A stretch of DNA of 37,960 bases from assembly GCA_031279675.1 (NCBI GenBank), contig JAITIB010000006.1:1-37960 (forward strand). The letters are read 5' to 3'. This document shows positions 4,775-35,734 of the stretch, piece after piece (positions within the stretch are counted from its first letter, which is position 1; each line of letters starts with the position of its first letter). A program made the position numbers and the translations under genes. The notes below the pieces were generated by a model. That model was not told the DNA's origin and made no database searches. It was given only the letters and a program-made list of their open reading frames with translations. The stretch comes from Puniceicoccales bacterium. Lineage in GTDB: Bacteria > Verrucomicrobiota > Verrucomicrobiia > Opitutales > UBA953.

Positions 4775-7700
4775 CTACAGCTCCCCGGGCGAGAGCCAGC
4801 GCAGGGAAAGGATGCGGAAGCGACGCCCAAAGTATTGGTTGACCGCGTTGAGTTTGCGCCCCTCGGGATCGTTGGACGGGGCGATGTCCGCAGTCTGAGT
4901 GTTGTCCACGTATTCGGGGAGGCGCTGGACGACGGCCTCAAGATAGGCACGGGCAGTGTTGCCCACGGCCTTGTGGGTGGCGTCGCCATAGGCACGAATG
5001 ACAAAAGTGTCGCTACGCGCATTGAGTCTGGCGCCAATCGCCTGTAGAATATCGCCTTGGAGAAGCATTCCGGGAGCACCGGTGGCAATGGGGATGTTGG
5101 CACCGTCCACGACATCGGGACGGCGGAAGCGTCCCGATATCTCGTCGTTGAGCATTGCGCTGGTGATGGTCTGCGCGCTCAGCCCGGTGTTGATACCCGC
5201 GCCATACTTGCGATCCGCGGCGACGAGGGCGGATTGGATGACGCCAAGTTTCCCCACCTCGTCCTGATCGGCAAGCCCGCGGTTGACAAACTCGCCGATG
5301 GAAAGAAAGGGACGGCAAAGTTCCTCGCCCGTGGGCGCCGTGTAGGGGGCGCGGTGCAAAGTGTGCGCGAGGCGGAGGCGGATTTTTTCAACAAGCGCCC
5401 TGGCAAGTTTTTCGATCTGGGCTGTGTTAAGCGCCTTTGCGCTGGTCCACGCATTGTCGTCCGCAAGGTTATCCGTTGCGAAATCGGAGCCGGACACGGG
5501 GAGGGTTCGCGGGAAAGGAGCCCGCCCGCTGGAGGGTCCGCCCAGGGGCGCGGGGCTGCTGGCCAAGGGAATGTCACGAGTGGAACCAAGGATGGCCCGC
5601 CATGCGCGCTCGTCGGTGGCGTTGATGTTGAAAGTTCCGCATTGGACGAGGCTCGCGGCGGACTTTCGGTAACGCGCCGGATCGCCGAGCAGGCTGGCGG
5701 ACTGGACCGCGTCGGCGCCAGGGGCCAGGCGGATGCTCGGGTTGGCAAGCGGGGTCTGCTTTTGCGGACTGAGAAAATCCGCCCACACCTTTTGCTGGTT
5801 GCGAACTTCCGTGGGGACGCTGTTCAGGTTGGAATGGTTGATTTCGGGGGCAATGGTGGAGAAGTAAAAGTGGTCCCAGAGACCGGTGTTGAGCATCCAT
5901 GTCTGATCGTAGAAGGTGTATCCGTCCGTTGGATCAAAGGCCATGCCGGTGCCGACATAGGGGCTTGGGAATGAATGCCCGACACCATAAAGGGCGACGC
6001 TGTCGAGAATGTTGATGTTGGCGGTCTGGAATTGCCCCAGACCCACCATGGGGGCGCGCGGGACGTGGGCGCGGATAGTGCGGGTTCTCCCGGAGGAGGT
6101 CATGCTGTTGCCGCCGTAGGCAAACCCCTTGCCGTCGGTCTCAACAAGGGTGGCGAGATCGCCTCCGGGGATGTCCCCAATGCGGTATTGCCAGCTGTTG
6201 CCGCTCGTGCGGTAACCGAAGTTCCCATACGCGTCTATGCAACGCACGGCGCCGAGCGGGTTTGTCATGGCATAGGTGGGAATGTTGTTGTTGGTGCTGA
6301 CGGCACCTCTCCAATCCGTCATTTTTTCGAACCACTCGATGTAACCGAAAAAGTGCGGGGCCTGGCTTTCGCTTGGCAACGACGCAATGTTCACGCCCGC
6401 CGCTGAACCACTGCACGCCGGATTGTAACTGCGGAAAAAATACTCCTGGTGTTCCGCCGCGTTGTAGTAGTCGCCATCGTGGGTAAGGTTCGCACCAAGG
6501 TTGCCCTCATCCGTGGCCTTGATCAGCTCGCGAACATAGACACCCGCTGTTCCGATCTGGGCGAAGAGCGCATCCTCGGGATCAATTTCAATCTGCGCCC
6601 CGTTAAGCTTCTCAAAATAATAGCCGCTGTGGTAATTGAAGTTGTTTTTCCCCACAATGAAGCGGTCCCATGGCTCGGGTTTGCCCTCTCCGGCGGAAAA
6701 GATGCGGTATTCGCCCGGCTGCAACACCATTTCGGGGACAAAAATGCTGATGTTGTCCTTGTCCCCGCCCCCGTAACTCCCCCAGCCCGGCTGGTCTTTG
6801 AAAATGCTCTGGAGGCTGCGGCTCAGCAGCGTCTCTCCCGTTTTGTTGTTGCGGATCGTCACATGCGCCCCGTCATAACGCAACGAAAGGCGCAACCCAG
6901 CGCGCTCCGTGCCGTTGCGTGTCTGGATGGTCTCCCCGCGCCAGCGCATGGGGACATTGAACGGATTGTGGACCACAACAATGGGATTCAACACAAGGCG
7001 CAGCACCTTTTTCCCCTCCGAACTCGCACCTTCAGCGGTCGATTGCAAACCAAGGGCGAGCATGTAGCGCACGCTGTGCGGTGTCGCCGCGACGGCGGAC
7101 GGGCGCATCACGGCAAGCCCCGAATAACCGCCAATGTCCCGCGTGTTGATGTCGCACCCCTGAACGCGCATGATGTGCGAATAAACAAAGGTCTCGCTCC
7201 CGCCACGCGACTGGATGAGCGATCTGTTCGACCACGCATCGGGATAAAATGGACGCGCAACAAAGATTCCGTCGGGGTGAAAATTCTCAGGTTTGTAGAG
7301 CCTGTAATAGTTGCGCATGAGTGTCCATGACGGGCCGAAAAGATGGCCGCCGTTCACTCCCTTGACGTTGAACATGGGGCGGAAATTCTCGTTGTTGCGC
7401 GAATTTTCGAGGATGCGCAGGGTCTTGTGTTCCCAACGCGGATTGCGCACACCGCCGGTGTCGTCCGGATCAAACGTCACCGTCACCGGCGCCGCTCCCG
7501 TCGTAAAATCAGACCGGGCGAACTCGTCATTATCCATCTCAAAGGCAAGCGAGAGATCATACCGAAGCCCCCCGAGTGTCGTGCTGGTAAAAAGCCCCTC
7601 CGAATAGGCGGTCACCGCATGGGCATAGTTCTGCGCGATGCGCGGGATTGCGCCCTCGCCAGCGCCGCCTGCCAGCCCGCTCAGGGCCTCCATCCCCGAG

Positions 7701-8518
7701 TAATCCGCAGTGCCCAGAACGCGCGCGAGCTCGGGATCCTCCGCACCCACCTTTTCCCACCGGGGAATCAGCCCCGCGCCCGCACCCCCCGGCGCCGCGA
7801 GAAGCCGCGCCAAGCCCCGGGGCTCGCGCGCATCCACGCCTGCCGCACGATCCGGGAGGTTCAACCGCGCCTTCACACCTTCGTCCGCGACCCAATAAGC
7901 GTAATGCCCCAAGCGTGTTTCCGCTGCCTTCAGAGGAACCCTCCGAACCCTGACCAGAGTATCAAACGGAGACCGGTTCAATTGTTCCTCCGGGCTCCCC
8001 GCCTCGCTCGTGAACAAGGTGACAAAATCAGGCGTGTCCGTCCCCGGCACCACTTCCCACGGCGTGCTGTATTGCGATGGGTAGGCCGATTTTCCCGCAA
8101 GCGAATACGTCTGAACCACGCCGCTTACCAACCACGCCGGGGGTGAATCGCGAAATCCCCCGCGCGAATCCCACACGCCCGTCCACCACGGATTGCGCCC
8201 TTCCCAAAGCGTCCGCGCCTCCTCCGGCAACCCACTCGCAACCGGCAAGGTCACGTTCGCCTGCGCCGTCACCCTCTGGTCGGCCCCCGCCGTCTGCTGC
8301 AACTGGCCCAGCGCAACGCGCAGCCCCACCACCGCGTTCAGGCGAGCCCGCTCGCGCTCGACCGATGCCGAGGTAATACGCAACTCGACCGCCAGAAATG
8401 CCGTGAGGCTGATGACAAGCAAAAGCAACATGCTCATCACCACGAGCGACAACACCAGCGAAAACCCGCGGGAACGCTTGCCGACAATTGACTCACTTGG
8501 GATGGATGATTTTTTCAT
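4775..8518 (-). CDS. giant pseudopilin-like protein (GspK/PilX-like N-terminus, 1247 aa)
   Basis: The N-terminus MKKSSIPSESIVGKRSRG|FSLVLSLVVMSMLLLLVISLTAFLAV is a prepilin-type leader plus hydrophobic helix, but it lacks Glu at +5, as in GspK-type minor pseudopilins. The C-terminal ...DTFVIRAYGDATHKAVGNTARAYLEAVVQR is GspK-like. No other T2SS/T4P genes lie in the window. Confidence 0.7.
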   Translation of the reverse strand: MKKSSIPSESIVGKRSRGFSLVLSLVVMSMLLLLVISLTAFLAVELRITSASVERERARLNAVVGLRVALGQLQQTAGADQRVTAQANVTLPVASGLPEEARTLWEGRNPWWTGVWDSRGGFRDSPPAWLVSGVVQTYSLAGKSAYPSQYSTPWEVVPGTDTPDFVTLFTSEAGSPEEQLNRSPFDTLVRVRRVPLKAAETRLGHYAYWVADEGVKARLNLPDRAAGVDAREPRGLARLLAAPGGAGAGLIPRWEKVGAEDPELARVLGTADYSGMEALSGLAGGAGEGAIPRIAQNYAHAVTAYSEGLFTSTTLGGLRYDLSLAFEMDNDEFARSDFTTGAAPVTVTFDPDDTGGVRNPRWEHKTLRILENSRNNENFRPMFNVKGVNGGHLFGPSWTLMRNYYRLYKPENFHPDGIFVARPFYPDAWSNRSLIQSRGGSETFVYSHIMRVQGCDINTRDIGGYSGLAVMRPSAVAATPHSVRYMLALGLQSTAEGASSEGKKVLRLVLNPIVVVHNPFNVPMRWRGETIQTRNGTERAGLRLSLRYDGAHVTIRNNKTGETLLSRSLQSIFKDQPGWGSYGGGDKDNISIFVPEMVLQPGEYRIFSAGEGKPEPWDRFIVGKNNFNYHSGYYFEKLNGAQIEIDPEDALFAQIGTAGVYVRELIKATDEGNLGANLTHDGDYYNAAEHQEYFFRSYNPACSGSAAGVNIASLPSESQAPHFFGYIEWFEKMTDWRGAVSTNNNIPTYAMTNPLGAVRCIDAYGNFGYRTSGNSWQYRIGDIPGGDLATLVETDGKGFAYGGNSMTSSGRTRTIRAHVPRAPMVGLGQFQTANINILDSVALYGVGHSFPSPYVGTGMAFDPTDGYTFYDQTWMLNTGLWDHFYFSTIAPEINHSNLNSVPTEVRNQQKVWADFLSPQKQTPLANPSIRLAPGADAVQSASLLGDPARYRKSAASLVQCGTFNINATDERAWRAILGSTRDIPLASSPAPLGGPSSGRAPFPRTLPVSGSDFATDNLADDNAWTSAKALNTAQIEKLARALVEKIRLRLAHTLHRAPYTAPTGEELCRPFLSIGEFVNRGLADQDEVGKLGVIQSALVAADRKYGAGINTGLSAQTITSAMLNDEISGRFRRPDVVDGANIPIATGAPGMLLQGDILQAIGARLNARSDTFVIRAYGDATHKAVGNTARAYLEAVVQRLPEYVDNTQTADIAPSNDPEGRKLNAVNQYFGRRFRILSLRWLSPGEL

Positions 8519-8775: not shown

Positions 8776-12912
<4,137 letters not shown>

Positions 12913-12998
12913 GGAATCGCGGGCGTGAAATGACGTGAACCTCCCAGAAAGAAGAATTGGATCAGTGGCGTCAAGCGATATTACCGCCGCGACACGGG

Positions 12999-13694
12999 CT
13001 ATTTTTGCAAGATTCCGGAAGTGGCGTCGTCGGCAAATTTCCGCCTGTCGGTGGCGTCGAAAAACGAGGTTCCCGCAACCAGCGTGTCCGCCCCGGCAAT
13101 GCGGCATGCCTGCCCGCTCTCCAATGTGATGCCACCATCCACCTCGATACGATAGCGCAAGCCCGCTTCCCGCCGCCATCGGGCAAGCGTTCGGACTTTC
13201 CCAAGCATCTCGTCCATGAACACCTGCCCGCCAAACCCCGGGTGCACCGTCATTGCCAAAATCAAGTCCACCTCGGCAAGGAAAGGGCGAATTTTCTCGA
13301 CGGGAGTATCAGGGTTGAGCGCCAGCCCGGCATTCAGCCCAAGCGCCTTGATTTTGCGCAACGCATCAAGATGTCCATAGTCGGGCTCGACGTGCACGGT
13401 GATGTTTTGGGCGCCTGCGCGGGCAAAGGTTTCGATATAGAGGTGGGGTTGGGCGAGCATCAGGTGCGTGTCAAAATACAATGAAGTGCGCGGGCGCAAG
13501 GCGGCGAGCGTCTGGGGACCAAAGCTGAGATTCGGGACAAAATGCGCGTCCATGATATCAAGGTGAACCCACGCGAGCCCGGCATCCTCAATGGCGGCGA
13601 CGCTTTGCCCGAGCGCCGCGTGGTCACCGGCAAGAAGCGAGGGGACGAGCAAGGGAGTGTCAGGCGGGGGCATTTGCGACGGCGGTGTTCGCAT
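12999..13694 (-). CDS. rpe: ribulose-phosphate 3-epimerase
   Basis: Motifs [38 protein letters not shown] and VDGGI. Alternative ATG at 13673. Confidence 0.9.
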
Positions 13695-16770: not shown

Positions 16771-16817
16771 CCGAGCTCCCCCCGCGCCTGCCCGTCCGCC
16801 AAGCAGAACCCCAATCC

Positions 16818-17858
16818 TCACCGCCGACGACGCCACCGCGCCCCCATCGCCAACGCCAGCGCCCCCACCCCACCAATCAACGCATACGTCGACGGCTCCG
16901 GAATCGCCCGCGCCACAAGATAAGTTTCATAAACACCGGCATTGAGCTCGTCGTAGGAAATATCAAACACCTGCCCCGTATCAGCTATTATAGGATCATA
17001 TCCCCACAACCCGTCCACAGGAGCCCCCTCAAGAACCAGGATCCGGTCCCCAAACGCAAACTCACCCTCGGCCAGAATTGTTAACGCGGACTCCGCGAAA
17101 TCGATAAAGCCAGTGTTGCCAAGACGGATCTTCCCGGCGGTGACAGCCGGACTCACGGCAAATGTGAACTCCAAAACGCCTTCAATCGCAAAGTCATGGG
17201 AAACCGACAGCAGGCTATTGCCTCCAATGAAAAGTTGTGCCCCGGATTCCGTCATCAGGTTGTCGGCACTTAAGGCACCTCCACTGTTCAGCGCAACCCG
17301 CCCGTACCAATCAATGTAAAGATTCGACACATCAACGCCTCCCGCGTCGGACACAACAAGCTCACCATCGTCTGAGAGACCGACGACAAGTTCACCGGAC
17401 ACATTCATTGTTGCAGTAGGACCCACCACCGTCACGCTGCCAGCAACTCCGTAAATTTGACCGATATAGAAGTGCATGCTGGAAACATGTCCGCCGAGAA
17501 CATTCAAATATCCAGGATCATTTTCTCCAACAAAGATAGTGTGCCCTGCGGTAAATGCCCCGCCCTCGTAAACATTGACAGTGCCCGGCCCAACGTGGCC
17601 AACGTAGCCAACGCGGGAACACTCAATCAATCCACCGCTTACAATATCGACAATCGCCTCCTCCCCATCCCACCCGATAATAACATCCTCTGGCACGCCA
17701 CCCGTAGTAGAGTGTACAACTCGATGAGCAATTGTCGTCCGCCCATCTGGCGCGATCCAGTAATCAACCGCATTGACAGCGGGCGGGCTCGCAAGGGTAA
17801 AAGCTGCCGCTGCGGCGGCAAGGGTGAGGGTTTTGAGGGTTACGGATGTTGTTTTCAT
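16818..17858 (-). CDS. PEP-CTERM sorting-domain protein with beta-helix / autotransporter-like repeats
   Basis: N-terminal signal peptide (..AAAAAFTLASPPAVNA). Gly/Val/Asn-rich repeats. The C-terminal IPEPSTYALIGGVGALALAMGARWRRRR is PEP motif + TM + Arg cluster. GC looks lower than in the neighbours. Confidence 0.8.
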   Translation of the reverse strand: MKTTSVTLKTLTLAAAAAAFTLASPPAVNAVDYWIAPDGRTTIAHRVVHSTTGGVPEDVIIGWDGEEAIVDIVSGGLIECSRVGYVGHVGPGTVNVYEGGAFTAGHTIFVGENDPGYLNVLGGHVSSMHFYIGQIYGVAGSVTVVGPTATMNVSGELVVGLSDDGELVVSDAGGVDVSNLYIDWYGRVALNSGGALSADNLMTESGAQLFIGGNSLLSVSHDFAIEGVLEFTFAVSPAVTAGKIRLGNTGFIDFAESALTILAEGEFAFGDRILVLEGAPVDGLWGYDPIIADTGQVFDISYDELNAGVYETYLVARAIPEPSTYALIGGVGALALAMGARWRRRR

Positions 17859-18094
17859 TTTTTTGTCTGTTTGGTTATTGGTTGGTTGTGAGAAAAAAGA
17901 GTTTCATGCCCGCACGAAAGCGGCGCGTTTGCCCATGGCGATGAACCCGCCAACGAGGGCGAAATGTGTCCCGTTAAACAGGGAGATCCGGCAAAAGAGC
18001 TCGGTTTGGCGCGTGTTACTCATGTTTTTTTATACAGTTGAAAGGGATTGTTTGAAAAAAATGCGTGTGATGGGGCCAAAATGTCCCGAAACAG

Positions 18095-18437
18095 CTTTCT
18101 GACGCGTAAGGAGATCCCAAAAAATATTTTTGCGACTTTCTGACGTGTAAGGAGGAGCAAAAAAAAATCCCCGCGCCCTTTCTAACGCGTAAGGAGGTCC
18201 AAAAAAAATATTTTGCGACTTTCTGACGAGTAAGGAGGAGCAAAAAAAAATTCCCGCGCTCTTTCTGACGCGTAAGGAGGAGCAAAAAATATTTTTCCGA
18301 CTTTCTGACGCGCAAGGAGGAGCAAAAAAAAATTCCCGCGCCCTTTCTAACGCGTAAGGAGGTCCAAAAAAAATATTTTGCGACTTTCTGACGAGTAAGG
18401 AGGAGCAAAAAAAATTCCCGCGCTCTTTCTAACACGT
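18095..18437. repeat. tandem array of 8 full and 1 partial units of about 41 bp, each with a TAAGGAGG motif and an A-tract
   Basis: Units start at 18095, 18136, 18178, 18219, 18261, 18301, 18343, 18384 and (partial) 18425, with spacings of 40-42 bp. Core is CTTTCT[G/A]ACG[C/A/T]G[T/C]AAGGAGG[AG/TC]C followed by A6-A9. Two tail types alternate: ATATTTTGCGA and TTCCCGCGC[C/T]. Units 1-4 and 5-8 form a higher-order duplication of about 165 bp. Confidence 0.9.
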
Positions 18438-18749
18438 CCGCAAGGGCCAGCGCGGTGCCCGCGCGGTCATCGTCGCGCTACGCGCAATTCCGCCTGCGGC
18501 GGGAGGTTCCGCTAACTTCAGTCCCACACTCCATAATTAGACGCCGCTTCGCCGACGGCAAAATCAGGTGGTATTGGAGCGACTTGAGAGTTCGTTTGCC
18601 CAACACTCTTGGGGAATGAAGTTTCATGGTCTGGTTTGTGTCCGCGCTTCCGCCGACTCCACATGGGGCAACATGTCTATGGGTCTTTCCGCACACACCG
18701 CACATTTTGGCTTGGCTCGGACAAGGATAGGCATCAGGCAGGAAGCGTT

Positions 18750-19418
18750 ATGAATCCGCGACTGTTTCCCCGTTCCACGTTTATCTTGTTTGCAGCGCTT
18801 GGTGCGCTCGCCTTTTCACCGCCAACGCGCGCGGCCAAGGTAAAAAGCAACGCGTTCCCAAACAGGAGCATTTTCGGCATCGAAATGGCGGGGACAGCCT
18901 TGGGGTTTTACGGGCGCGCCGACCGGGTGCTCTCGGTCTCGTTCCAAGAATACACAACGGGACCGCTTGTGGTGAGCGAAGTGGTGATTGATCTGGAGGG
19001 GGCAAACCAGCTTTTGCGCCTCTACTCGGCACGCCCGGTCTCGCCAGAGGAAATGGCGCGCCGGAGTTACGAGGGCGTCGCCGCAGGCGCTGCGGAAGGA
19101 ACGGACATGGCGGCGCCACCGGCGGAAATCTTGCCAAGCTCAGGAGGAGCGACGGCAAAACTGGAGGCGGGAGGACGGGCGGCGGTCGAAAAATTTAACG
19201 CAGGTCTTGTCGTAAAAACTTATCCGGTGACAACGCACGCGAAGACGGCGGAATTCTCCGTCAGCTCGCGCAAAGAATTGCTGGCCTTCTACAATAGCTT
19301 CCGGAGCCTGTGCACTAACAAGCCCGTGGCGGTAAAGGCGGACGGCTCGCCGGGCGGGGGCGGCGCAGGCGAGACACAAGTGCTTTCGCTCGGGGGAACA
19401 CTCTTCACGCTTGAATAG
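18750..19418 (+). CDS. secreted hypothetical protein
   Basis: Internal ATG at 18750 gives the signal peptide MNPRLFPRSTFILFAALGALAFSPPTRAAK. No recognisable domain. The upstream 47 codons of the track ORF look non-coding. Confidence 0.6.
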   Translation: MNPRLFPRSTFILFAALGALAFSPPTRAAKVKSNAFPNRSIFGIEMAGTALGFYGRADRVLSVSFQEYTTGPLVVSEVVIDLEGANQLLRLYSARPVSPEEMARRSYEGVAAGAAEGTDMAAPPAEILPSSGGATAKLEAGGRAAVEKFNAGLVVKTYPVTTHAKTAEFSVSSRKELLAFYNSFRSLCTNKPVAVKADGSPGGGGAGETQVLSLGGTLFTLE

Positions 19419-19472
19419 GCGCCCCTCGCGGACAAACCCCGAAAAACTCAACTTCAACCCAACAGGACAACC

Positions 19473-19829
19473 ATGATCGAAACGATAAAGAAAACACTCT
19501 TCGCCGGACTTGGCGCCGCCGCCATCACGAAGGACGCTGTCGAGTCCGCCCTCCACGACTGGATCGAGAAGGGGAAAATCACGCCCGAGGAAGCCCGGCA
19601 TTTTGCCGAGAAACTCGTCAACACCGGCGAGCACCGCTGGGAAAAAACCAAGGACGAGGTCTCGCAAAAAGTCTCCGAACTGGCGGGCAAGGTGCCGTTT
19701 GTGAAACGCGGCGACCTGCAGGCGCTGGAGGCGCGCGTCGCGGTGCTTGAACAAATGGCATTGCGCGCGCAGCTCGCCGGGGACGCCACCCCAAGGCAGC
19801 CAAGCACGGAAGGGGAGCTCCTGCCCTAA
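19473..19829 (+). CDS. phasin-family / UbiK-like coiled-coil protein
   Basis: MIETIKKTLFAGLGAAAITKDAVESALHDWIEKGKITPEEARHFAEKLV... matches the COG3937 phasin-like pattern. The C-terminal VKRGDLQALEARVAVLEQ is coiled coil. Lies directly upstream of the UbiB-like kinase. Confidence 0.6.
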   Translation: MIETIKKTLFAGLGAAAITKDAVESALHDWIEKGKITPEEARHFAEKLVNTGEHRWEKTKDEVSQKVSELAGKVPFVKRGDLQALEARVAVLEQMALRAQLAGDATPRQPSTEGELLP

Positions 19830-19877
19830 GGCGGGAAGAGGACGCGCCCGCCGCGCCACGTCGCGCCCAGCGCCGCC

Positions 19878-21554
19878 ATGTCACCAGTCCCGATCCCCGT
19901 CCCGCTCAAGGCCCTCGCCCTGCTTAAGAATGTCGCCCGGGCAAGGGAGATTTTTGCCATCCTCATCAAGAATGGCTTTCTGGAATTTCTGGAACAGGTC
20001 GGCGCGCCCTCGTCACGGCTCGCCAAAATTCTCCCGATCCCGACGCAAAACATCACGCTGTGGCAACGCATCCGCGTGACCTGCGAGCAGCTCGGGCCAA
20101 CCTTCGTCAAGCTCGCCCAGCTGGCCAGCTCGCGCGACGATCTGCTCCCGGAGGCGCTCGCGACGGAACTGCGCCGCTTGCGCGATCAAGTGCCGCCCGT
20201 GCCTTGGGCGGACATGGCGCAGGTGCTTGCCGCGGAGCTGCACGAGGGCGTGGAGGCCCATTTCGAAGAAATGGACACGACGCCGGTGGCGTGCGGCTCC
20301 ATCGGCCAGGTTTACAAGGCGCGACTCAAGGCGGACGGACGCGCCATCGCGATCAAGCTCCAACGCCCGGGCATCCACCGCGCGATGCGCGCCGACATCG
20401 AGATCCTGTCCTGGCTCGCACAACGCGCCCACGAACGGTTCGCGGAACTGCGCCCTTACGCCCTGCCGACAATCGTCGCGGAGGCCGCGACAGGGCTTTT
20501 GCAAGAACTCGACTTCAACATCGAGGCACGCAACGCCGCGCATTTCAACGCAATCAATCCCTGCCCGTCAGTTTTCGCCCCCCGTGTGCACGAGCATTAC
20601 ACCACGGCGCGCCTGCTCGTGTCCGACTGGGTGGAGGGCGTCCCGCCGGGCTCCCCGGAAATCCCCGTCGAGACGGCGCGCCTGCTCGCCGCAGCCGGGG
20701 CAAACTCGGTTTTCCGCCAGATATTTCTCGACGGATTCTTCCACGCCGACCCGCACCCGGGCAATCTGCTCGTCACACCAGATGGACGGCTCTGCCTGAT
20801 TGACTGGGGCCTCGCGGGCAGCCTCACGCGGCGGATGCGCTACATGCTTGCCGACCTCCTCGGCGCGCTCGCACGACAGGACGCCGAAAAGGTGATCCAG
20901 GCGCTGCTCGCCAACGGAATGAAAATCCGCTCCGACCGCACCAAGCTTGAGGGCGATGTCGCCCAAGTGTTGCGCCGCCACCACAAGCTCGCAGAAACGC
21001 CCGGTGAGTTCGGCAGCGCGATGACAGACCTGCTGCGCGTCTTCGCCCGCCACGGCATCGCGCTCGCGCGCGACTACACGCTGCTGGCCAAGGCCGTGCT
21101 CGCCATTGAGGAGACAGGGCGGCAACTCGACCCGGCATTTGACCTGCAACACCATGCGCGCCACTTCCTGAAAAAGCTGCGCGCGGAACGCTGGAGTCCC
21201 CGCACACTGGCAAAACTGGGCGCGTGGGCGGTGGCGTCCAACATCGCGCAATTCCGCGAGATCCCCGGGAGCGTCAGCCGCATTTTGCAAAAGCTTGAGG
21301 ACGGCGAGGCGACGCTGAGTGTCGAGCACAACGGGCTGGAGGATTTCCGGCGCACGATGGAAATCGCCGTGAACAGGCTCGTCTTCGCCGTAATCGTCGC
21401 GGCGCTCCTGGTGGGCTCGTCAATGTTGGTGCGCGGAGACGACAACCCGTGGCAATTCCCTCCGAGCCCCGGAGTGATCGGCTACGCGCTGGCCTTCTGT
21501 TTCACCCTTTACCTGCTCTGGGATATTTTGCGCCACGGACGCCACAAACATTAG
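19878..21554 (+). CDS. ABC1/UbiB-family atypical kinase
   Basis: FVKLAQLASSRDDLLP, GSIGQVYKA, AIKLQRPG, FFHADPHPGNLLV and IDWG, plus two C-terminal TM helices. 558 aa. Confidence 0.9.
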   Translation: MSPVPIPVPLKALALLKNVARAREIFAILIKNGFLEFLEQVGAPSSRLAKILPIPTQNITLWQRIRVTCEQLGPTFVKLAQLASSRDDLLPEALATELRRLRDQVPPVPWADMAQVLAAELHEGVEAHFEEMDTTPVACGSIGQVYKARLKADGRAIAIKLQRPGIHRAMRADIEILSWLAQRAHERFAELRPYALPTIVAEAATGLLQELDFNIEARNAAHFNAINPCPSVFAPRVHEHYTTARLLVSDWVEGVPPGSPEIPVETARLLAAAGANSVFRQIFLDGFFHADPHPGNLLVTPDGRLCLIDWGLAGSLTRRMRYMLADLLGALARQDAEKVIQALLANGMKIRSDRTKLEGDVAQVLRRHHKLAETPGEFGSAMTDLLRVFARHGIALARDYTLLAKAVLAIEETGRQLDPAFDLQHHARHFLKKLRAERWSPRTLAKLGAWAVASNIAQFREIPGSVSRILQKLEDGEATLSVEHNGLEDFRRTMEIAVNRLVFAVIVAALLVGSSMLVRGDDNPWQFPPSPGVIGYALAFCFTLYLLWDILRHGRHKH

Positions 21555-26502: not shown

Positions 26503-26595
26503 GTGTTTGAGCTTTTATTGTTTTGCGGCGGTTGAATCAACCGCCCGGATTGCCATCACCGGGCGGGAAAATGCAAATTGGGTGAGGTTCCTGGG

Positions 26596-27195: not shown

Positions 27196-27222
27196 GTTTT
27201 TGGATGATTGGCGGTGTCGTGA

Positions 27223-27600
27223 TTATGCGGATTTTTTCGCCGCGCCAATGGTTTTGCGCGCGCCCTTCCGGGTGCGGGCATTGGTGCGGGTGCGTTGACC
27301 GCGAACGGGAAGCCCGCGAAAATGACGAAGCCCGCGGTAACACTTGATGGCTTGGAAACGCTTGAGGTTCTGGCTGATTTCGCGGCGCAAATCCCCCTCG
27401 CACTTGTAGCCACGTTCAACGATGTAGCCGACAATCTTGTTCAGCTGCTCCTCGGTGAGGTCCTGTGCGCGAAGGGCCGGGTTGATGCCCAAGGCATCCA
27501 CGATTTCAATGGCACGGGTCGGACCGATGCCATAAATGTAGCGTAACGCGTATTCAACGCGCTTGTTATTAGGTATATCGACACCAAGGAGGCGAGGCAT
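27223..27600 (-). CDS. rpsM: 30S ribosomal protein S13
   Basis: Internal ATG at 27600 gives [30 protein letters not shown], the canonical S13 start. 125 aa. Confidence 0.93.
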
Positions 27601-32524: not shown

Positions 32525-32805
32525 TGGTGGCTGCTTAGAAATATCGAGACGTGAAAAGTCGTGAAAGGGCGCGCAGCAAAAACGTTCGGGGCAATCGCGC
32601 AAGTTTTTTTTTCGACTTTATTTCCCCGGGTCCCTCCTGCCGCTCACAGTGCATCCGGAAATTTTTCGCCCCGGACGGGAGTTGGCCATGGGATGCATGA
32701 TTTCGGGAATACCTCCGGCAGGGTGTTTTGACGCGCCGGTTGCACCACCAAGGCGTATCCGTTTTCACATACATTGCAACGGGCCAGGGAGGCGCGTTCC
32801 GTTCG

Positions 32806-32890: not shown

Positions 32891-34225
32891 TCATGCGATG
32901 CGCTCGACAATGAGCGGCTCATCCTTGGGACGTTTCGGAGCGAGACGGTAGGCATCGCGGAAATAATGCAGCGAGGCATCCATGCGGGCCTCGTCGTTGT
33001 AGTGTATCATGATGAGTGGTTCCCCCTGCTTGACTTGGGTGCCCACTTTGCGGATGTCCGTGACACCGACAGCGGGGTCAAGGGTGCCATCCTTGCGGGC
33101 GGCGAGCACCTGCACGCCGCGAGCGATTTTCCCGGCATCGATCGTGTGAACGTATCCGCGCTTGGGGGCAGGGAGCTTGCGCACGTACTGCGCCTTGGGG
33201 AAAGTTTCCGGGTGGTCGATCCAGGTGGTGTCGCCACCCTGCGCCTTGACCATTTCGCGGAATTTGGCGAGCGCGGTGCCGTCGCGAAGGTGCTTGTCCA
33301 CGGTCTGCTTGGAGGAGAGGGTGGACCCGGCGACACCGGCAAGACGCACAATTTCCATGCCAAGCTTGGAAACGAGCTCCTTGAGATCCTCCGGCCCCCC
33401 GCCCTTGAGCAACTCGACCACTTCCTTGATCTCCAAGGCAGTGCCAACGGAATTGCCGAGGGGCTGGTTGCTGTCTGTGACGACGGCAACACAACGGCGG
33501 TTCATGCTGCGAGCGACGCGGGTGATGGTGCGCGCGAGCTGCCGCGCCTGTTCCTTGTCACGGATGAATGAGCCGTTACCCCACTTGATGTCTATCACCA
33601 AGCCTTCGCACCCCTCGGCGAGTTTCTTGGCAAGGAAACTTCCCGTGATGAGGGGGAGGCTGGTGATGGTGGCAGTGCTCTGGCGCAGGGCATAGAGAAT
33701 TTCATCGGCGGGCGCGATCTCGGGGCATTGCTCGACGATGGCTGTGCCGACCTTGGTCAGGACAGCGATGTAATCCTTGAGGGGCATCCTGCCCCGGAAT
33801 CCGGGAATGCTCGTGAGCTTTTCCACGGTCGTGATGGCGAAGTCCTCATCCTTGCCGTTCATGCAGGGGACGACGACACCGGAAGCGGCGGCAAGGGCGG
33901 CGAGGACAATGTTGGTTTTGTCCCCAACGCCCCCGGTGGACACTTTGCTGATCTTGGGAAGATGGATTTTTTCCAAGTCTATGACTTCGCCTGAGAGCAT
34001 CATCTCCTCGGCAAACGAGGCGGTTTCCTGCGCCGTCATTTGCTGGAAATAAATGGCCATTGCGAGGGCGGCTTGCTGGGACTCGGGCATCTCGCGGTCC
34101 ATGATGGAGTCAACGATGTGCCGGATTTCCTCGTTGGTGAATTCGCCTCCCTCACGTTTTTTCTCAATGAGGTAGGCAAACGACGGCTTCAATGCGCGCT
34201 TTGGTTCGGAAAGTTTTTCAGACAT
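32891..34225 (-). CDS. deoA: thymidine / pyrimidine-nucleoside phosphorylase
   Basis: Glycosyl-transferase family 3 blocks (A.AMA....MT..E...F...M..SG, KVSTGGVGDKT) and the PYNP C-terminal domain (...VGTQVKQGEPLIMIHYN). 444 aa. Confidence 0.9.
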   Translation of the reverse strand: MSEKLSEPKRALKPSFAYLIEKKREGGEFTNEEIRHIVDSIMDREMPESQQAALAMAIYFQQMTAQETASFAEEMMLSGEVIDLEKIHLPKISKVSTGGVGDKTNIVLAALAAASGVVVPCMNGKDEDFAITTVEKLTSIPGFRGRMPLKDYIAVLTKVGTAIVEQCPEIAPADEILYALRQSTATITSLPLITGSFLAKKLAEGCEGLVIDIKWGNGSFIRDKEQARQLARTITRVARSMNRRCVAVVTDSNQPLGNSVGTALEIKEVVELLKGGGPEDLKELVSKLGMEIVRLAGVAGSTLSSKQTVDKHLRDGTALAKFREMVKAQGGDTTWIDHPETFPKAQYVRKLPAPKRGYVHTIDAGKIARGVQVLAARKDGTLDPAVGVTDIRKVGTQVKQGEPLIMIHYNDEARMDASLHYFRDAYRLAPKRPKDEPLIVERIA

Positions 34226-34430
34226 GGATTATGGTTTTTAATCGGGAAAAGCCCCGCTGCTGGCAAAGTGACTCCGCAACGGGAAACCGTGCACTTGAGG
34301 AAATTTCCCATGGGTGTCGAGCACAAAATTTTTCAAAACCGTCATTTTCACCCTGAAAAACTTTTCTCCATTTTGGGTCTTGCCAAACGCAGCCCAAACC
34401 TTATCCGCAGGCATCCTTCAATTCATCCTT

Positions 34431-34622
34431 ATGATAGCCGAAACACAAAACCGCTCCAAGACACCGCTCGACTACGACTTCACCGACACAGAGGCGCTCT
34501 CCCGTTACGTAACCGAGACCGGACGCATCCTGCCACGCCGCATCACGGGACTGACTGCGCGCCAGCAACGCCACATCACCAAGACCATCAAGCGCGCCCG
34601 CAACATGCTCCTGATGAAGTAA
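34431..34622 (+). CDS. rpsR: 30S ribosomal protein S18 (short, 63 aa)
   Basis: Internal ATG at 34431. [49 protein letters not shown] is the S18 core. Not flanked by rpsF, ssb or rplI. Confidence 0.85.
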
Positions 34623-34662
34623 GTGTCCCGGACTCCATTCCTTTTACGCATCGACAGCCCAT

Positions 34663-34690
34663 GACGCGCCGGAAGTGCGCGTCTTTTTTT
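34663..34690 (+). terminator. rho-independent terminator after rpsR
   Basis: 7-bp stem GACGCGC / GCGCGTC (34663-34669 / 34677-34683) with a 7-nt loop, followed directly by T7 (34684-34690). Confidence 0.6.
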
Positions 34691-34705
34691 GCAGACGCAC
34701 CGTCC

Positions 34706-35734
34706 ATGCCAACGCCACCGCTGCCGCCATTTTTTCGCGACACCACCACCGATCTCATCCGCGTCGCCGCCCTGCTTCGCGCAGGAGAGCTGGTGGCATT
34801 GCCCACGGAAACCGTCTATGGACTCGCCGCCAACGCACTCGATGAAACCGCCGTGCGGCGCATCTTCACCGTCAAGGGACGCCCATTGATAGACCCCCTC
34901 ATCGTCCACGTCCCAACACTCGAAGCAGTGGCGCAAATCGCCACACCACCGCCCCGGCTCCGCCGCCTCGCGACACAATTCTGGCCCGGTCCGCTAACGG
35001 TCGTCCTGCGGAAAAAAAGGATCATCCCCGACCTTGTCACCGCAGGAACTCCGACAGTCGCCATCCGCATTCCACGACATCCCCTGATGCAAAAAGTGCT
35101 CTCACTGACAGGGTTGTTTTTGGCCGCCCCCAGCGCGAACCCGTTCGGCTACATCAGCCCCACACGCCCCGGACATGTGCGCGACTCGCTCGGCGAAAAA
35201 ACGCCATGGATACTCGACGGGGGCGAATGCGCACACGGGATCGAATCCACAATCCTTGATCTCACCAATCCCGCCACACCCCGCCTGTTGCGGACAGGCC
35301 CCGTGACGCGTGACGCATTGGAATCCGCCCTGAACCAGCCAGTCGCGCCACCGCCCAAAACACCCCCCGGCCAAGGAGGACATCCGGAACAGCCAACGGC
35401 ACAACCCGCGCCCGGGATGTTAACGCGGCACTACAGCCCGCGCACTCCCATTGTCCTGCGCAACCACGGCGCAGCAATACCGGTGTCACCACCCTCCCCT
35501 CTCCAACGCCGCGCAATTGTCTGGTTGCAACGCCCGGACAAGCCATCCACCGACGGCCTTGACTTCTGGTTGAGTGAAACCGGATCGCCGGAAGAAATTG
35601 GGCGCAACATTTTCGCGCTGCTGCGCCAGCTCGACTCCGGCCAATTCGACGTCATGCACGTCGAGTTGACGAACGGCACAGGATTGGGCGCGGCAATCAA
35701 CGACCGCCTGACCCGGGCCGCTGCAAAACCTTAG
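34706..35734 (+). CDS. tsaC: L-threonylcarbamoyladenylate synthase (YrdC domain + Sua5 C-terminal domain)
   Basis: LRAGELVALPTETVYGLAANALDE.AV.RIF..KGRP..DPLIVHV and SANPFG are YrdC/Sua5 blocks. The in-frame ATG at 34661 is also possible, but it lies inside the rpsR terminator stem. The first roughly 620 nt of the 564-aa track ORF overlap deoA and rpsR and are not coding. Confidence 0.85.
   Translation: MPTPPLPPFFRDTTTDLIRVAALLRAGELVALPTETVYGLAANALDETAVRRIFTVKGRPLIDPLIVHVPTLEAVAQIATPPPRLRRLATQFWPGPLTVVLRKKRIIPDLVTAGTPTVAIRIPRHPLMQKVLSLTGLFLAAPSANPFGYISPTRPGHVRDSLGEKTPWILDGGECAHGIESTILDLTNPATPRLLRTGPVTRDALESALNQPVAPPPKTPPGQGGHPEQPTAQPAPGMLTRHYSPRTPIVLRNHGAAIPVSPPSPLQRRAIVWLQRPDKPSTDGLDFWLSETGSPEEIGRNIFALLRQLDSGQFDVMHVELTNGTGLGAAINDRLTRAAAKP

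Follow-up and report, generated by a model that had tools for sequence, protein, structure and literature searches.

A tandem array of 41-bp units with Shine–Dalgarno-like motifs in a divergent intergenic region of a Puniceicoccales bacterium

Why would a bacterium whose genes appear to make little use of Shine–Dalgarno (SD) sequences carry eight near-ideal copies of that motif, head to tail, between two genes? The question is raised by a 343-bp tandem array at positions 18095–18437 of contig JAITIB010000006.1 (GenBank assembly GCA_031279675.1), from an uncultured member of the Puniceicoccales, phylum Verrucomicrobiota. We analysed positions 1 to 37,960 of this contig, referred to below as ‘the window’. 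The array occupies part of an 891-bp region that separates two divergent genes, one for a PEP-CTERM protein and the other for a 222-aa protein; a setting of about 890 bp beside the PEP-CTERM gene had been described in the original prediction, which was made by inspection of the letters. Our tentative view is that the array is a non-coding minisatellite peculiar to its lineage, whose role, if it has one, is played as DNA, in the form of a phased binding array or a curved upstream array, and that it is likely to be a variable number tandem repeat (VNTR).

That the array is real, and no product of chance, is clear from its anatomy. Inspection of positions 17700–18900, together with Tandem Repeats Finder, shows this single array, which has three nested periods; at 42 bp there are 7.8 copies with 76% matches, at 83 bp 4.2 copies with 89%, and at 165 bp 2.1 copies with 93%. 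Eight full units of 40–42 bp are followed by a ninth that starts at 18425 and is cut off after 13 nt. Each full unit opens with a 20-nt core, CTTTCTGACGCGTAAGGAGG. With up to one mismatch allowed, this core occurs on the plus strand at 18095, 18136, 18178, 18219, 18261, 18301, 18343 and 18384, nowhere else in the 37,960 bp, and in none of 100 dinucleotide-preserving shuffles. Successive starts, the ninth included, lie 41, 42, 41, 42, 40, 42, 41 and 41 bp apart; unit number and spacings alike are as first reported. The SD-like motifs are concentrated here too. Seven of the window's 12 plus-strand AAGGAGG sites fall within the array, in seven of its units, as do both sites of TAAGGAGGT, the full complement of the anti-SD tail, and these are the counts originally given. 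The G+C content is 43%, against 59% for the contig. The edges are sharp: beyond the 13-nt partial copy the right flank has no likeness to the unit above chance, the left flank has no above-chance similarity at all, and local alignment with a shuffle control finds no decayed units in either.

Within the unit, two parts behave differently. The first is a conserved 31-bp module composed of the 20-nt core, three bases and a run of A; its general form is a CTTTCT-N8-AGGAGG core and then the A-run, repeated eight times. The second is a 10-nt linker, which comes in two mutually unrelated kinds, denoted A and B, that alternate between modules. When an A unit is compared with a B unit, identity is 91% over the core and 11% over the final 10 nt, the linker; within one unit type the values are 94% and 85%. 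The contrast between module and linker is significant by Fisher's exact test (p ~ 2e-5, computed on the consensus). The alternation of linkers had been called strict; unit 5 is a hybrid in which the tail of an A-type core is joined to a B-type linker. In the alignment, every one of the nine units has CTTTCT unchanged, and each of the eight full ones has AAGGAG. Core substitutions are confined to positions 7, 11 and 13, with a single exception at position 20 of unit 1. These three positions fall within TGACGCGTAA, an imperfect palindrome that had been singled out as a possible binding site and that varies more than any other part of the core; ACGCGT is intact in four of the eight full units. 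The outer arms, CTTTCT and AGGAGG, are symmetric at four of six positions. The B-type linker TATTTTGCGA, taken together with the preceding A-run, forms a perfect palindrome, AAAATATTTT.

The units also record how the array grew. Units 1–4 and 5–8 are two copies of a higher-order repeat of about 165 bp, as had been recognized from the outset. Units 7–8 differ from units 3–4 by a single 1-nt indel, and units 5–6 have diverged further from units 1–2. Together with the hybrid unit 5, this pattern is the signature of repeated unequal exchange. We infer growth in stages, with tandem duplication first of 41 bp, next of 83 bp and last of 165 bp, by way of slipped-strand or unequal recombination. Minisatellites and VNTRs are defined by head-to-tail, non-coding units of 10–100 bp, and the array consists of just such units; judged from the sequence, its nested 41/83/165-bp structure and sharp edges make VNTR status plausible. 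Among bacterial minisatellites, the mycobacterial interspersed repetitive units (MIRUs; 46–101 bp) are similar in their intergenic head-to-tail units, nested duplication and non-coding nature. MIRUs are dispersed at many loci, however, lie inside operons and carry small open reading frames (ORFs) for translational coupling, whereas the array is single-copy in the available data, lies in a divergent region, has stops and near-starts that are not in frame, and shows no observed polymorphism.

The array does not encode protein. A 139-aa ORF runs through it on the minus strand, and the original prediction was right to dismiss it. It has no Pfam match. Its per-codon log-likelihood is 0.04, against 0.14–0.38 for in-frame reference genes (one Sua5-like ORF, at 34040–35734, excepted at 0.05) and -0.13 to -0.02 for the remaining ORFs of the intergenic region. 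Among 1.84 billion protein representatives it has no real homologue; three weak matches, at 33–34% identity, are translations of unrelated 41–42-bp tandem repeats in other organisms. Shorter frames were considered and rejected. The mini-ORF TTG-CGA-CTT-TCT-GAC-GNG-TAA is not conserved in unit 5 and starts 15 nt from the SD motif, and frames opened by AUU or AUA are not kept between repeats. Nor does the array match a known RNA. Rfam gives no match at the gathering threshold in the whole window, and in the region itself yields only noise at E-values up to 10. No transfer RNA or transfer-messenger RNA genes were found. Clustered regularly interspaced short palindromic repeats (CRISPR) are alike in having repeats of about 31 bp parted by short non-repeat segments, but the ‘spacers’ here are 10–11 nt long and of two recurring kinds, instead of unique and about 26–40 nt. 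No cas genes or domains occur among the ORFs annotated in the window, and the CRISPR-DR families of Rfam give the array no significant match, the lone match to CRISPR-DR36 (14 bits, E = 4.6) lying to its left. The earlier exclusion of CRISPR stands.

What distinguishes the modules, besides their conservation, is how they are placed on the helix. They recur every 41.25 bp on average; this is about 3.9 helical turns (3.91 turns per unit in our model), and they lie therefore on nearly the same side of the DNA. We modelled curvature with our own dinucleotide wedge code and Bolshoy–Trifonov parameters, so that all values are predictions, expressed as the ratio of end-to-end distance to contour length. 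In controls, phased A6 tracts gave ratios of 0.32–0.39 and unphased A6 tracts 0.98. The array has a ratio of 0.58–0.59, against a contig mean of 0.89, and this rises to 0.81 with other bases in place of the A-runs. Of synthetic arrays made from these units, only those with a period of 41.5–42.5 bp are curved. When 343-bp segments of the contig were sampled every 50 bp, six of the eight least extended started between 17851 and 18101, and the other two at 6451–6501. Over 150 bp the effect is modest (0.82–0.88, against about 0.96), and for this reason the predicted curvature is best described as moderate and sustained; the original prediction of curvature from in-phase A-tracts holds in the model, and its epithet ‘strong’ does not. 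Phased A-tract DNA and UP-like elements offer the nearest parallel. As in these, A-tracts lie near integral helical turns with a net, A-run-dependent predicted bend, upstream of a candidate promoter. Unlike them, the array has one A-tract per four turns, not one per turn, which accounts for the moderate curvature, and the promoter is no more than a candidate.

The gene toward which that candidate points is itself unusual. The PEP-CTERM protein matches TIGR02595 and the T5SS/PEP-CTERM-associated repeat TIGR04393 above cut-offs, and has just two homologues of more than 40% identity (P0125 and P0126). The G+C content of its gene at third codon positions is 0.55, the lowest of the 21 genes compared (the others ranging from 0.60 to 0.88), its leader is A-rich and without an SD sequence, and the lowest-GC 1.8-kb stretch of the contig coincides with the segment that holds the gene and the array. 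In an independent Logan assembly of run SRR14710902, contigs match the window at 100% identity on either side but stop at 16813 and 18660, leaving the PEP-CTERM gene and the array (16814–18659) unassembled. This hints that the segment is variable and probably accessory. The segment may be an island, acquired or variable between strains, or else a weak point of the assembly, its join not being confirmed by synteny in relatives. We saw no mobile-element boundaries at the Logan break points, and found no mention of SRR14710902 in the papers searched.

Promoters are harder to place. A stricter scan of 17700–18900 found no sigma-70-like promoter on either strand and no plus-strand terminator; the promoter negatives are weak, the consensus of the host lineage not being established. 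A permissive scan of our own yielded one sigma-70-like candidate in the 891-bp region (Table 1). It points at the PEP-CTERM gene and would put the array at about -60 to -400. A sigma-54/enhancer model for PEP-CTERM genes was rejected: the best -24/-12 match agrees at 8 of 12 positions, and matches of this quality are common across the window. As a separate observation, T7-ATACAGTTGAAAGGGATTGTTTG-A7, an AT-rich inverted repeat at 18025–18061, sits a little to the left of the array and overlaps the sole sigma-70-like candidate, whose -10 element, TATAAA, is at 18034–18029 on the minus strand. The plus strand of 18000–18100 folds at -27.8 kcal/mol (z = -1.9).

What inclines us to see the module as the relevant entity, and DNA as the level at which it would act, is that it is conserved next to unrelated linkers, presents itself on one helical face, and carries the A-tracts on which the predicted bend depends. 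With modules some 3.9 turns apart, nearly the same face of the helix would be exposed in each, and the A-tracts would add up to a sustained bend. Such an array could offer a regulator or a nucleoid-associated protein a platform on which to bind cooperatively or wrap DNA. Alternatively, it could serve as an intrinsically curved, AT-rich upstream element. The setting would be the divergent control region of a surface-protein gene that is atypical in composition and probably accessory, and gain or loss of units would tune either this gene or the 222-aa gene, in the fashion of a contingency locus. The SD-like AAGGAGG would then be incidental: one motif of one ancestral unit, copied by duplication. 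Of the ideas first put forward for this locus, the phased, curved binding array fits best. The contrast of module with linkers, the spacing of 3.9 turns and the A-run-dependent model curvature agree with it; the proposed TGACGCGTAA palindrome, being so variable, does not, and no par or rep gene lies nearby.

Several considerations weigh against this reading. In double-stranded form the core is a weak palindrome, CTTTCT agreeing with the reverse complement of AGGAGG at 4 of 6 positions, and the 14 bp that separate the centres of its arms do not make one helical turn. Conservation of the core could reflect gene conversion seeded by the longest identical tracts, and not selection. Phasing alone says little, since about one random period in four would lie so close to a multiple of 10.5 bp that curvature results, and the wedge parameters are taken to be those of Bolshoy et al. 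1991. The sigma-70-like candidate matches at 9 of 12 positions, and its two overlapping matches are not above chance (1.55 ± 1.3 in shuffles); no promoter can be placed with confidence in the array region. The assembly gap is merely suggestive, since the Logan contigs are fragmentary in general, with another break near 12676. Protein binding and an effect on transcription are inferences, as is copy-number variation, which was not seen in an organism known from one sample, SRR14710902. Finally, as discussed below, the plus strand folds better than its shuffles (z = -4.2), which a purely DNA-level model does not require.

Table 1. Positions of the features discussed (strand left empty where a feature has none)
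Feature	Position	Strand	Basis or remark
PEP-CTERM sorting-domain protein gene, 346 aa	16818–17858	-	Pfam, NCBIfam
Only sigma-70-like candidate in the 891-bp region: TTTTCA/TTCAAA, N18/16, TATAAA	18029–18058	-	Own permissive scan
Higher-order copy 1 (units 1–4, order B-A-B-A)	18095–18260		Tandem Repeats Finder period 165, unit list
Higher-order copy 2 (units 5–8)	18261–18424		Unit alignments
Partial ninth unit, CTTTCTAACACGT	18425–18437		Local alignment of flanks to consensus, shuffle control
Example of the 31-bp module: 20-nt core CTTTCTAACGCGTAAGGAGG, TCC, A8	18178–18208	+	Alignment
B-type linker, TATTTTGCGA	18209–18218		Sequence; inverted repeats
A-type linker, TTCCCGCGCT/C, unrelated to B-type	18251–18260		Unit comparison
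Predicted 61-nt inter-unit hairpin, if the plus strand is transcribed	18178–18238	+	-23.2 kcal/mol, z = -3.0
Weak terminator-like hairpin: CGCGTTAGAAAGGGCGCG, GGAA, U9	18337–18354	-	Consensus scan
Three other terminator-like hairpins	18172–18189, 18255–18272, 18419–18436	-	Consensus scan
222-aa signal-peptide-like protein gene	18750–19418	+	313 bp from right edge of array

A plainer explanation is suggested by searches for relatives of the array. A degenerate form of the 20-nt core gave two single matches in the GTDB species genomes, none in IMG/VR, and six single matches, none of them tandem, in the JGI metagenomes. The GTDB and JGI matches are isolated and due to chance, and several of those in JGI are ordinary ribosome-binding sites. 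The whole 891-bp region has no blastn match among plasmids and phages. Across the collections searched, the array thus appears to be an orphan. Many dispersed copies of the repeat string CTTTCTNACGNGTAAGGAGG would mark an element like the repetitive extragenic palindromic (REP) sequences; the search for further copies, proposed at the outset, found the unit nowhere else in the 38-kb window, the only part of the genome examined, so that dispersal of the MIRU or REP kind was not seen. Three relatives with 222-aa orthologues of 45–50% identity (among our loci L004–L008) have an intergenic region of 48–170 bp upstream of that gene, with no tandem array, and their upstream neighbours differ (ArgJ or an ABC transporter). 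The array is indeed absent from the nearest relatives, as the original prediction would have had us check, but these are only about 50% identical in protein; the best non-self 222-aa homologue being no closer than this, no close relative appears to have been sequenced. In the literature we found no described SD-bearing tandem array or PEP-CTERM-associated repeat of relevance.

These results suit a neutral by-product, that is, a minisatellite generated by slippage or unequal recombination that has no effect on the flanking genes, and whose SD-like motif, phasing and hairpins are accidents of the ancestral unit. Orphan status and absence from the nearest relatives argue for it; so do the nested periods and sharp edges, which are typical of satellite dynamics, and the want of any promoter, terminator, Rfam or covariation signal. 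Uniform neutral divergence would not, however, leave modules 91% and linkers 11% identical, although biased gene conversion could mimic this. Moreover the units have diverged from one another (76% at period 42), so the array has presumably persisted in spite of the deletion bias of direct repeats. We consider neutrality rather unlikely, though a serious contender.

There remains the motif that first drew attention. None of the 24 gene starts in the window has GGAGG or AGGAGG within 30 nt upstream, and a remark originally made of a few genes holds more widely. Leaders are mostly A/C-rich and G-poor, often with an A-run that abuts the ATG (for example 17859–17888, 26503–26532 and 27196–27225, all on the minus strand; the rplF leader has A9 at 32604). 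On this sequence evidence the Opitutia-like host appears to be SD-scarce. The SD-poor gene starts agree with reports that Verrucomicrobiales are globally without SD sequences (PMC10798248) and that some Verrucomicrobia are ‘SD-scarce’ (PMC10783764). Against this background, the eight ideal SD motifs are a genuine curiosity. They are less surprising than they look, because the motif needed to arise only once, in the ancestral unit: we put the prior chance of AAGGAGG on one or other strand of a 41-bp unit at roughly 0.5%, a modest figure given the many motifs that might have caught the eye.

Could the motifs work in RNA? Both strands of the array were folded, as had been recommended. The plus strand does better than its shuffles (z = -4.2) and the minus strand does not (z = -0.8). 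The hairpin originally imagined within a unit, between CUUUCU and AGGAGG, proves weak (-4.5 kcal/mol, z ~ 0); the stable fold joins neighbouring units, core i pairing with core i+1 around a B linker, with CUUUCU and AGGAGG matched through two G-U pairs (Table 1). In the predicted plus-strand ensemble every AGGAG is paired (probability unpaired 0.02–0.13), and only the A-runs of A-type units are open (0.96–0.99). The inter-unit hairpin shows no covariation: 18 of its 24 pairs are invariant and the other six deviate solely by unpaired cells. The asymmetry between strands hangs on just two G-U pairs per core, and minus-strand hairpins have G-U pairs that exist on the minus strand only.

Two proposals build on a plus-strand transcript. 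The first is a decoy or sponge, in which the eight SD mimics soak up 30S subunits or a protein that binds GGA, for instance CsrA, or else a structured leader of the 222-aa gene. Its appeal lies in seven exact AAGGAGG sequences in a contig with no strong SD at any of 24 genes, in the report that Verrucomicrobiales lack SD sequences globally (PMC10798248), in the better folding of this strand, in the ability of the invariant CTTTCT and AAGGAG to pair in RNA, and in the single-stranded state predicted for the A-runs of A-type units. The small RNAs CsrB, RsmZ and RsmY likewise hold many GGA-containing, SD-like motifs within about 350 nt. They space them some 15–20 nt apart, however, where the array has 41 nt, and they display GGA in loops; in the array GGA is predicted to lie in stems. 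In addition, there is no Rfam match even at E-values up to 10, no promoter upstream of the array or plus-strand terminator downstream, no homologous array in the collections searched, and not one compensatory change, the existing substitutions breaking pairs instead. With AGGAG paired, no promoter or terminator, no covariation, an asymmetry of two G-U pairs and a modest prior of about 0.5% for the motif, the sponge, which was the first of the original hypotheses, goes unsupported, and we think it very unlikely. The second and bolder proposal makes the RNA a conditional decoy. Each SD mimic, masked by CUUUCU and accompanied by an exposed A-run, would be offered to ribosomes with an exposed anti-SD tail or to a regulator that binds GGA or A-rich RNA. 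This would be the first SD sponge in an SD-independent translation system, and we give it hardly more than an outside chance.

A case can also be made for the minus strand, which would be transcribed toward the PEP-CTERM gene. It might supply a long 5' leader of that gene that acts as a multi-step attenuator, or a series of 83-nt double-unit small RNAs, each with two anti-SD-like, CU-rich CCUCCUUA motifs and a terminator of its own. The tandem LhrC small RNA genes of Listeria are an analogue of the latter. Four terminator-like hairpins with U8–9, confined to the minus strand, fall one to each 83-bp double unit, the rightmost at the edge of the array (Table 1). Their stems use G-U pairs that this strand alone provides, CUCCU is partly accessible in the predicted ensemble (probability unpaired 0.13–0.65), and U-runs of at least 8 are rare elsewhere in the contig. 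But four hairpins are not significant against the 2.3 ± 1.5 expected from shuffles. The stems are weak, with 5–6 bp (4 G-C and 2 G-U, up to two of the pairs being G-U), and GGAA intervenes between stem and U-run. Folding is no better than in shuffles, neither the units nor the sequence to the right of the array yielded a promoter, and anti-SD seeds would have few targets among genes that lack SD sequences. An anti-SD RNA from the minus strand, the second of the ideas first proposed, is thus without clear support, and a minus-strand RNA of any of these kinds seems to us unlikely.

A role in replication or partition, as origin iterons or a sopC-like centromere, has been largely refuted, and we give it next to no credence. 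The comparison is natural at first sight. sopC of plasmid F comprises 12 repeats of 43 bp, and the array resembles it, and iterons too, in unit length (about four turns), direct orientation, placement on one face of the helix and an internal palindrome; it is also an AT-rich island in a GC-rich genome. The context is chromosomal, however, with two alternating linkers between the repeats, and the ACGCGT palindrome at the centre is the least conserved part of the core. The region contains no sequence like the DnaA box TTATCCACA within one mismatch. No par (sopAB or parAB), rep or dnaA gene is annotated nearby, the neighbours being housekeeping genes (rpoC, fabH, ubiB and a ribosomal-protein operon), and there is no similarity to plasmids. 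The ‘polarity switch’ that had been noted at the array is merely a local change of gene strand: there is neither a replication-type skew switch nor a global skew minimum. The oriC and centromere readings were rejected on the absence of DnaA boxes, skew switch and par or rep genes.

The array, then, lacks those defining features of CsrB/RsmZ, CRISPR, oriC and partition sites that were tested. By analogy it is closest in behaviour to a minisatellite of the VNTR type or to binding sites arrayed in phase. The repeat sequences form a new family, so far unique; as an object, the array is of a familiar kind. Arrays of 41–42-bp period were also noticed in unrelated organisms, at L009:3175–3535, L011:53–390 and L010:3525–4210 in our numbering. 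That at L009 has 8.7 copies of a 41-bp unit, composed of a GC-rich hairpin and T8, with a higher-order period of 83 bp. These may represent a recurrent class of four-turn minisatellites with A/T runs, or a coincidence.

On the other side of the array, the 222-aa protein belongs to no Pfam or NCBIfam family. It has 142 homologues at E <= 0.001, the best non-self ones 50–52% identical, and those with names are all from Verrucomicrobiota, mostly Opitutia/Puniceicoccales. The names borne by homologues put the host in Verrucomicrobiota, class Opitutia (Puniceicoccales or Opitutales). Its gene is followed by those of a phasin-related protein of about 118 aa and of UbiB (18750–21554), and the cluster recurs in a Puniceicoccales metagenome-assembled genome (L004:4001–6957); it is a conserved three-gene cluster without an assigned function. 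Elsewhere the window holds rpoC, rpe, lptE, a gene for a BamD-like TPR protein, fabH, corC and rplQ-rpoA-rpsD-rpsK-rpsM-map-secY-rplO-rpsE-rplF, and the neighbourhood of the array is core chromosome. Two features of the rpoC region deserve mention. rpoC (8776–13179, minus strand) does not adjoin rpoB: its upstream neighbour is rpe (12999–13694), and the window contains no other ORF of at least 1000 aa that could be rpoB, so the near-universal rpoB-rpoC linkage seems to be broken here. The rpoC ORF as listed overlaps rpe by about 180 bp, and its true start is for that reason probably later. Directly downstream of rpoC, a 1247-aa protein (4775–8518, minus strand) has no Pfam or NCBIfam match. 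Its N-terminus, RGFSLVLSLVVMSMLLLLVISL..., resembles a prepilin-type hydrophobic segment, and it may be a large pseudopilin-like protein of unassigned family.

What the array means for its host depends on the level at which it acts. Were it transcribed and able to bind ribosomes, for which there is no present support, it would bear on whether the anti-SD tail of Verrucomicrobia is occluded, as it is in Bacteroidia (PMC10798248). If the DNA-level reading that we tentatively favour is true, the array would be another minisatellite placed to modulate a gene for a PEP-CTERM surface protein, first noted here in the poorly studied Opitutia/Puniceicoccales. It would be useful mainly as a strain marker, and may be a contingency locus.

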